Assembly (NCBI RefSeq): GCF_003334355.1
Contig: NZ_QOWP01000002.1
Reading direction: 5' to 3' (one strand)
Length of the DNA: 64,000 bases
From: Escherichia coli
Lineage (GTDB): Bacteria; Pseudomonadota; Gammaproteobacteria; Enterobacterales; Enterobacteriaceae
Part shown: positions 3,798 through 5,489 of the stretch, in pieces
Layout of the letters: each line of letters begins with the position of its first letter
Position numbering within the stretch: position 1 is the first letter of the stretch
Notes under the pieces: model-generated
What the model was told of the DNA's origin: nothing
Databases searched by the model: none
What the model saw: only the letters and a program-made list of their open reading frames with translations
Made by a program: the position numbers and the translations under genes

Positions 3798-4511
3798 ATG
3801 ATTAAAAATTTGCCGCAAATAGTGTTGTTGAATATTGTCGGCCTCGCGCTGTTTCTTTCCTGGTATATTCCCGTTAATCATGGATTCTGGTTGCCGATTG
3901 ATGCGGATATTTTTTATTTCTTTAATCAGAAACTGGTCGAAAGTAAGGCCTTTTTGTGGCTGGTTGCATTGACCAACAATCGCGCTTTCGACGGTTGTTC
4001 TCTGCTGGCGATGGGAATGTTGATGCTGGGTTTCTGGCTGAAAGAAAACGCCCCTGGCAGACGACGTATCGTGATTATGGGTCTGGTCATGCTATTAACT
4101 GCAGTGGTATTAAACCAGCTGGGTCAGGCATTAATTCCTGTAAAACGGGCCAGCCCAACATTGACTTTTACCGATATTAACCGCGTCAGCGAACTGCTCT
4201 CTGTTCCCACGAAAGATGCCTCACGAGATAGCTTTCCCGGCGATCACGGCATGATGCTGCTTATTTTTTCGGCATTCATGTGGCGTTATTTCGGCAAAGT
4301 TGCAGGCCTTATCGCCCTTATTATTTTTGTGGTTTTTGCATTTCCCAGAGTAATGATTGGCGCACACTGGTTTACTGACATCATTGTCGGTTCGATGACC
4401 GTGATATTGATCGGTTTGCCCTGGGTGTTGCTGACGCCATTAAGTGATCGATTAATCACCTTTTTTGACAAATCACTACCGGGAAAAAACAAACATTTCC
4501 AAAACAAATAA
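3798..4511 (+). CDS. lpxT: Lipid A 1-diphosphate synthase LpxT (YeiU), 237 aa, PAP2 family membrane protein
   Basis: ATG at 3798 gives 237 aa (MIKNLPQIVLLNIVGLALF...); multi-pass hydrophobic protein; ORF-track start 3762 is an extension. Confidence 0.85.
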   Translation: MIKNLPQIVLLNIVGLALFLSWYIPVNHGFWLPIDADIFYFFNQKLVESKAFLWLVALTNNRAFDGCSLLAMGMLMLGFWLKENAPGRRRIVIMGLVMLLTAVVLNQLGQALIPVKRASPTLTFTDINRVSELLSVPTKDASRDSFPGDHGMMLLIFSAFMWRYFGKVAGLIALIIFVVFAFPRVMIGAHWFTDIIVGSMTVILIGLPWVLLTPLSDRLITFFDKSLPGKNKHFQNK

Positions 4512-4922
4512 CTCACAGTAATTAACATCATCAGGCTTATTTTTATAGTGAGGATAATCCTGATGATGCGCACCGTGCTTTCATCCATCGCGCGCAAAAA
4601 TCATTCTCTAAGTAAATGAATGGATTGCATGCGTTTCACTCAATCGTACTTTAATTGACCAATCCCGCTTATTAACTTTCTGTATCACTTTTTCTTATAA
4701 AAAATCATGCAAAACCGCTCGCCAAGACCGCATCAATCGGGTAATCTCGAACTCGTTTTGCCTCGGCGGTAGATTATCCTCACAGCATATAATTTTGTGC
4801 GTTAGTCCACAGATTTGGCCTTAAGGAATTGTTTCAACATGCCCAGGTAATTAGTCTCGTGTCGCTTGGCATTTTTTTATAACGATATTTGTCGTTAAGG
4901 ACTTCAAGGGAAAACAAACAAC

Positions 4923-5489
4923 ATGGTCAAATCTCAACCGATTTTGAGATATATCTTGCGCGGGATTCCCGCGATTGCAGTAGCGGTTCTGCTTTCTGCA
5001 TGTAGTGCAAATAACACCGCAAAGAATATGCATCCTGAGACACGTGCAGTGGGTAGTGAAACATCATCACTGCAAGCTTCTCAGGATGAATTTGAAAACC
5101 TGGTTCGTAATGTCGACGTAAAATCGCGAATTATGGATCAGTATGCTGACTGGAAAGGCGTACGTTATCGTCTGGGCGGCAGCACTAAAAAAGGTATCGA
5201 TTGTTCTGGTTTCGTACAGCGTACATTCCGTGAGCAATTTGGCTTAGAACTTCCGCGTTCGACTTACGAACAGCAGGAAATGGGTAAATCTGTTTCCCGC
5301 AGTAATTTGCGTACGGGTGATTTAGTTCTGTTCCGTGCCGGTTCAACGGGACGCCATGTCGGTATTTATATCGGCAACAATCAGTTTGTCCATGCTTCCA
5401 CCAGCAGTGGTGTTATTATTTCCAGCATGAATGAACCGTACTGGAAGAAGCGTTACAACGAAGCACGCCGGGTTCTCAGCCGCAGCTAA
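4923..5489 (+). CDS. mepS: Murein DD-endopeptidase MepS (Spr), NlpC/P60 lipoprotein, 188 aa
   Basis: Lipobox LLSAC near N-terminus; NlpC/P60 catalytic-domain sequence; matches Spr. Confidence 0.9.

Follow-up and report, generated by a model that had tools for sequence, protein, structure and literature searches.

Dar and Sorek reportedly described, in 2018, Rho-terminated transcripts that exonucleases trim back to a protective 3′ stem-loop. A Term-seq study of Escherichia coli K-12 prints an RNA 3′ end at MG1655 position 2269627, in the sequence ATTAACATCATCAGGG...GATGATGCGC and immediately before ACC (Adams et al. 2021, PMC7815308). The authors classed this end as "orphan" because of its distance of 60 nt to the stop codon, and the peak is weak, with a score of 1323 in one of three growth conditions (PMC7815308).

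Two transcription start sites have been published for mepS (spr). The start at −169 is supported by nine 454 reads and is preceded by a −35 element, CGCTCGCCA, and a −10 element, GGTAATCT, separated by a 17-bp spacer; the start at −59 was obtained by 5′ RACE with the sequence Gcttggcattttttt (Mendoza-Vargas 2009, PMC2760140). A long and a short mepS mRNA, which differ by 109 nt, are produced from promoters P2 and P1, respectively (Elgrably-Weiss et al. 2024, PMC10798246). The activity of P2 is higher in exponential phase, and that of P1 is higher in stationary phase (PMC10798246). The small RNA OxyS pairs with the mepS ribosome-binding site at G37–G47 of the short mRNA, and the long leader exhibits a 5.6-fold lower basal translation and a weaker response to OxyS (PMC10798246).

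The sequence between lpxT and mepS was analyzed here within a 64-kb stretch of E. coli DNA, which is referred to as the window. The region is ordinary, in that it consists of a hairpin at the lpxT 3′ end together with mepS promoters and an OxyS-targeted leader that are already published. The hairpin is very probably the 3′-end stem-loop of lpxT (yeiR-lpxT), with the rest of the gap serving as the control region of mepS. MG1655 coordinates are converted to window positions by subtracting 2265056. The genes and the elements at the lpxT 3′ end are the following.

3798–4511, + strand: lpxT coding sequence (Kdo2-lipid A phosphotransferase), from the list of open reading frames and the RefSeq annotation of identical or near-identical genomes
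4509–4511, + strand: lpxT stop codon, read from the sequence
4526–4568, + strand: stem-loop, probably at the 3′ end of the lpxT transcript, with arms at 4526–4540 and 4554–4568, from the fold, covariation, and wobble pairs
4571, + strand: mapped RNA 3′ end (MG1655 2269627), from Term-seq (PMC7815308, supplementary file 1)
4923–5489, + strand: mepS coding sequence, with its ATG at 4923, from the list of open reading frames and the RefSeq annotation

The gap extends from 4512 to 4922. A non-coding interval of 410 bp had been reported in an earlier note on this DNA; the interval exists, but its length is 411 bp. The RefSeq annotation places no features in it, and the same is true of the MG1655 record with its curated small genes and small proteins. 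The description of the gap as long for E. coli holds as well, since it is the longest one separating co-directional core genes in the ~50 kb around it in a closely related genome. The spacer is found once per genome, with 95–100% identity, in 5426 of 5426 complete E. coli genomes, which makes it part of the core sequence rather than a dispersed repeat. For comparison beyond E. coli, a MepS query was used to assemble 80 loci from different Enterobacteriaceae species. In 79 of these 80 loci, mepS is preceded by lpxT, and a spacer length of typically ~410–426 bp is maintained among the genera. Separately, a genomic island suggested by the annotation of strain 214-4 was dropped as a candidate; the window has no collinearity to that genome past ~21 kb.

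The 10-mers catcatcagg (4526–4535) and cctgatgatg (4559–4568) had been correctly placed in the earlier note, and their extension to a 14-of-15 match around a 13-nt loop is confirmed by the sequence of the two arms. The absence of a U-tract is likewise borne out by the 3′ flank, CGCACCGTGCTT, which has one T in nine positions. The stem begins 14 nt past the lpxT stop codon. As + strand RNA, the hairpin forms 10 bp, a 1 × 1 mismatch, and then 9 bp that include G-U pairs, capped by a 3-nt loop. Half of the E. coli stem is G+C, and its apical part is long and A/U-rich. The 69-nt region folds with −21.7 kcal/mol on the + strand (z of −3.7) and −23.8 kcal/mol on the − strand (z of −4.5), and in each case 0 of 200 shuffles was equal. 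A shuffled 64-kb window contains 0.03 inverted repeats that match at 14/15 or better around a loop of up to 40 nt, or 0.17 at the base composition of the spacer; the actual window has four such places. Because the shuffles give 0.03 per window, the lpxT-mepS repeat is not a product of chance. The E. coli hairpin was not called by a terminator scan.

Nearly all of the 80 loci have a stable hairpin after the lpxT stop codon. The earlier note had proposed conservation and covariation as a check on the hairpin, and both speak for it. One sequence family, ATCAGGGATCG-loop-CGATCCCTGAT, occupies the same place at a constant distance to mepS in at least 59 of the 80 loci. The CATCATCAGG/CCTGATGATG stem of E. 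coli belongs to this ATCAGGGATCG/CGATCCCTGAT family, with an enlarged apical part. In an alignment of 55 distinct sequences, chosen by a motif search that demands both arms, compensatory changes on both sides are present in 13 of the 14 pairs, 82% of the alignment cells are paired vs 72% in shuffles and 27–45% in controls with slid partners, and the observed covariation is reached by 0 of 500 shuffles. Using a stem search that awards no G-U bonus, the mismatches within stems are G-U on the + strand nine times and on the − strand once. This 9:1 bias indicates that selection acts on the + strand RNA. The loop varies between 4 and 13 nt among genera.

A T-tract follows the equivalent hairpin in Kluyvera, Klebsiella, Siccibacter, Cedecea, Buttiauxella, and Atlantibacter; thus, the hairpin is a canonical lpxT terminator in these six genera. 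The T-tract is absent in the group of Escherichia, Citrobacter, and Enterobacter. The E. coli hairpin is the apparent descendant of an intrinsic terminator whose U-tract was lost. With the U-tract lost, its role in E. coli is most likely that of a weak, non-canonical terminator, of a barrier that would halt 3′-to-5′ exonucleases after termination farther downstream, or of both.

Mapping of RNA 3′ ends across the spacer had also been proposed, and the published Term-seq data provide it, with an end at 4571, 3 nt after the stem. Given this position of the 3′ end, the hairpin belongs to the lpxT 3′ end and not to the mepS leader, and it would define the 3′ end of the yeiR-lpxT transcript. An end at +3 without a U-tract fits exonuclease trimming to the stem better than classical intrinsic termination. 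The sequence downstream of the hairpin (4569–4700) contains 33 C vs 17 G. Such a C-rich, G-poor stretch would suit Rho loading, and Rho could load there past the hairpin in what would be a putative contribution to termination. No Rho-termination region near the hairpin is listed in supplementary file 2 of the Term-seq study (PMC7815308). The RNA end of the hairpin was already in a published table, and the "orphan" end can now be assigned to lpxT. In the proposed arrangement, the ~350 bp past the hairpin would constitute the mepS control region, composed of an upstream block, P2, a palindrome, P1, and the OxyS-targeted leader.

The lpxT-mepS palindrome could alternatively be a DNA site for a dimeric protein, instead of or besides an RNA structure. 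The arms ATCAGGGATCG and CGATCCCTGAT are strongly conserved among genera, and a palindrome, like a stem, is maintained by the symmetric changes. The left-arm identity across the 80 species (0.7–0.88) exceeds the need of a plain terminator, which makes an added sequence-specific DNA- or protein-binding role possible. In the arms found outside Escherichia, GATC (Dam) sites occur twice, as GGGATCG and CGATCCC (loci L007–L083, ~2101–2138). However, the 9:1 ratio of wobble mismatches favors + strand RNA, the variable loop would shift the spacing of the half-sites, the RNA 3′ end lies at the base of the stem, and several genera have a T-tract after the hairpin. A DNA site is thus an improbable explanation of the palindrome.

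The reading of the hairpin as the lpxT 3′-end stem-loop leaves the downstream part of the spacer to mepS, for which the following elements can be placed.

4716–4724 and 4740–4747, + strand: −35 (CGCTCGCCA) and −10 (GGTAATCT) elements of mepS P2, with the start at 4754 (−169) (PMC2760140, PMC10798246)
4829–4834 and 4852–4857, + strand: putative −35 (TTGTTT) and −10 (TAGTCT) hexamers of mepS P1, assigned from spacing and invariance, with the start at G4864 (−59) from 5′ RACE
4880–4897, + strand: predicted small, conserved leader hairpin UAACGAU-AUUU-GUCGUUA, from the RNAalifold consensus and centroid folds
4900–4910, + strand: OxyS pairing site at the mepS ribosome-binding site (GACTTCAAGGG), deduced from G37–G47 (PMC10798246)
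4917–4919, + strand: RNA 3′ ends 4–6 nt before the mepS ATG (MG1655 2269973 and 2269975), from Term-seq (PMC7815308)

Conservation among the 80 species was judged against a baseline of 0.61 identity, which is that of the third codon positions of mepS. The spacer blocks above the baseline are 4675–4706, the P2 elements, the first 8 nt of the P2 transcript, and 4796–4811. Further conserved blocks comprise the −35 and −10 regions of P1 and nearly the entire short leader (4863–4921), in which the OxyS pairing site is 100% conserved. The least conserved stretch of the spacer is 4569–4670, with an identity of 0.2–0.5 in the ~100 nt after the hairpin.

The suggestion in the earlier note of a long, regulated mepS 5′ UTR is correct insofar as a 169-nt leader exists, is an OxyS target, and was already published, but the hairpin lies outside it. 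The start sites whose mapping it had called for are likewise on record at 4754 and 4864, but both are downstream of the hairpin, which ends at 4568; a minor additional start could lie within 4572–4753. The distance from the hairpin is 186 nt to the P2 start and 296 nt to the P1 start. These distances bear on the possibility of a cis-regulatory role of the hairpin in mepS expression, such as attenuation, in which it would be the opening structure of a mepS leader of great length or of a transcript that reads through from lpxT into mepS. The hairpin and mepS are on the same strand, the constant spacer length among genera suggests a functional unit, and some read-through from lpxT is likely because the hairpin has no U-tract. 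In contrast, the mapped mepS starts leave the hairpin out of either leader, an RNA 3′ end follows it after 3 nt, conservation in the spacer is lowest directly downstream of it, and the hairpin at the same place in other genera is a canonical terminator. A cis-acting element of mepS is accordingly judged unlikely.

The long mepS leader was also considered as a riboswitch-like structure and rejected, with a z of −0.12 and a consensus fold of two small hairpins. The leader hairpin at 4880–4897 lies directly 5′ of the Shine-Dalgarno sequence and contains one covarying pair (UA, UG, CG). The RNA 3′ ends at 4917–4919 were found in two growth conditions and scored as non-Rho-dependent (PMC7815308); they imply leader fragments of ~56 or 166 nt. 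Two further structures lie within mepS itself. A conserved 7-bp hairpin, AUCUCAA-CCGAUU-UUGAGAU, at 4931–4950 on the + strand covers codons 3–10 and begins 8 nt past the start codon. Its nucleotides are almost invariant among genera, its loop-closing pair is A-U or G-U, and it could have an effect on translation initiation. A strong hairpin, ATGCATCCTGAGA...TCTCAGGATGAAT, is present at 5026–5093 on the + strand, with chance-level microRNA-like Rfam matches on both strands, and a strong Term-seq 3′ end is located at its foot (MG1655 2270136, window position 5080).

An unannotated small RNA, the other content proposed earlier for the spacer, found no support. A permissive Rfam search of the window region returned no relevant match, only microRNA and snoRNA matches at chance level, and a search of 20 related loci from 20 other genera at the gathering threshold returned nothing relevant. 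Conservation is low in the middle of the spacer, and the one promoter-like site found in the region compares with 2.8 expected from shuffles. This site, TTAACA-16-TATAGT at 4522–4549 in the hairpin, was rejected as a promoter, being within chance and having a −10 element that is not conserved: TATAGT becomes CATAGA, CATAAT, or CCATTT inside the genus Escherichia and is missing outside it. The small open reading frames at 4562 (18 codons) and 4617 (12 codons) were rejected as well, as their length and sequence vary among five Escherichia lineages, with 8, 12, 17, and 18 codons for the frame at 4562. That the 4522–4549 promoter drives a small RNA or the 18-codon frame at 4562–4618 (MMRTVLSSIARKNHSLSK) with a GAGGA Shine-Dalgarno sequence is therefore highly improbable, since the 10-of-12 agreement with the sigma-70 consensus and the GAGGA 7 nt ahead of the ATG are set against a chance-level site with a variable −10, a frame that is inconstant within Escherichia, a Shine-Dalgarno sequence and ATG buried in the stem, and the empty MG1655 annotation and Rfam results.

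In addition to the published promoters and leader, the spacer contains conserved candidate control sites and the remnant of another.

4578–4595, + strand: degenerate Pho-box-like remnant with 6/14 mismatches, from comparison with other genera
4614–4628, + strand: moderately conserved motif AAATGAA-N4-TTGC, from alignment and conservation
4675–4706, + strand: ACTTTCTGTATCAC...TTCTTATAAAAAATC, a block at −79 to −48 relative to P2 with the highest conservation in the non-transcribed sequence, from identity and alignment
4793–4814 (core 4796–4811), no strand assigned: CRP-like palindrome TGTG-N8-CACA, from its invariance, with CRP as the putative ligand

The palindrome is the sole copy of TGTG-N8-CACA in the 64-kb window, and its distance to the mepS ATG is constant in 83 of 83 mepS-carrying loci. 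It is centered at −60.5 relative to P1 and at +50 relative to P2. The window sequence matches the CRP 22-mer consensus at 12 of 22 positions, and the flanks in Cedecea and Buttiauxella extend to AAATGTG...CACATTT. A class I CRP site has the form TGTGA-N6-TCACA and is centered near −61.5. The layout of the candidate palindrome at P1 would be that of a class I promoter, with which the stationary-phase activity of P1 would fit. The palindrome could thus be a CRP-family site that activates P1 and blocks P2, such that leader usage would switch with carbon status. A CRP ChIP-exo supplement has spr solely in its table of RNA polymerase profiles, so that it does not speak for CRP binding.

The block at 4675–4706 has an identity of 0.8–0.98 vs the 0.61 baseline and in places exceeds the first codon positions of mepS. 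No known motif was recognized in it. The block may combine an UP-element-like A/T tract with a factor site.

The Pho-box-like repeat CTGTCAT-N4-CTGTCAT, allowing up to three mismatches, is present in the lpxT-mepS spacer of 49 of 81 loci, against a background rate of 0.039 per kb. All copies are on the + strand and fall between −339 and −354 relative to the mepS ATG, and all but one of them within −339 to −347. Eight species of Citrobacter, Phytobacter, and Leclercia carry it with zero mismatches (loci L010, L012, L014, L022, L028, L035, L036, and L043; ~2160–2177, at −341 to −343). The conserved position suggests a PhoB-dependent promoter toward mepS in other genera, which may represent a third promoter ~305 nt upstream of mepS in most Enterobacteriaceae, lost in Escherichia. 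The motif at 4614–4628 would coincide with the −10 and start region of this putative promoter in the other genera. A Pho box in E. coli was rejected, given the 6/14 mismatches at 4578–4595; as judged from the alignment, Escherichia is a lineage that has apparently lost the box. The text of an E. coli PhoB ChIP-seq paper does not mention the lpxT-mepS locus.

Enterobacter, Salmonella, and Citrobacter have a Fur-box-like 7-1-7 motif, aGATAATtATTATCa, that spans +16 to +30 of the P2 transcript. It has up to three mismatches in 13 of 81 loci, with a good match in Enterobacter cloacae. In locus L009, it spans ~2349–2363, at −152 from the mepS ATG, and L007, L019, and L021 have it at the same position. 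With six mismatches, the Fur box was rejected as a feature of the E. coli window.

On these grounds, it is possible, though somewhat doubtful, that the spacer holds unrecognized inputs to MepS, namely the palindrome, the block at −79 to −48 of P2, and, in other genera, the PhoB promoter. mepS appears to have such conserved candidate inputs (the palindrome, the P2 block, and the Pho box elsewhere), which would be relevant to the control of cell-wall hydrolase levels, as MepS is an essential-class cell-wall endopeptidase. If the inputs are real, the lpxT hairpin would still be the lpxT 3′-end structure. As far as was found, the palindrome, the block upstream of P2, and the Pho box in other genera have no published description.

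The downstream 170 nt of the spacer are exactly the region of the published work on mepS P2, P1, and the OxyS-targeted leader, and the start sites, the 109-nt difference, and the OxyS site all map onto the window. In contrast, the TGTG-N8-CACA palindrome, the block upstream of P2, and the hairpin are not described in that work.

Like REP/BIME elements, the lpxT hairpin is an imperfect intergenic palindrome directly after a gene. However, it is single-copy in each E. coli genome, lacks the REP consensus, and is orthologous among genera instead of dispersed. With a median of one place per genome in the 5426 E. coli genomes, a REP/BIME repeat was rejected.

With the protective 3′ stem-loops of Rho-terminated transcripts, the hairpin shares the lack of a U-tract, an end a few nucleotides from the base of the stem, and a C-rich, G-poor downstream sequence. 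It differs from them in that the table of Adams et al. 2021 has no Rho region near it.

The resemblance to an intrinsic terminator lies in the stable sense-strand stem-loop a few nucleotides past the stop codon, in the RNA 3′ end at its base, and in the T-tract that follows the equivalently placed hairpins of Kluyvera, Klebsiella, Siccibacter, Cedecea, Buttiauxella, and Atlantibacter. In contrast to a typical intrinsic terminator, for which the end is 7–9 nt into the U-tract, the E. coli hairpin is followed by the 3′ flank CGCACCGUGCUU, with no U-tract, and the end is at +3. The lpxT hairpin thus provides an apparent example of a terminator stem that has been kept under selection while its U-tract was lost.
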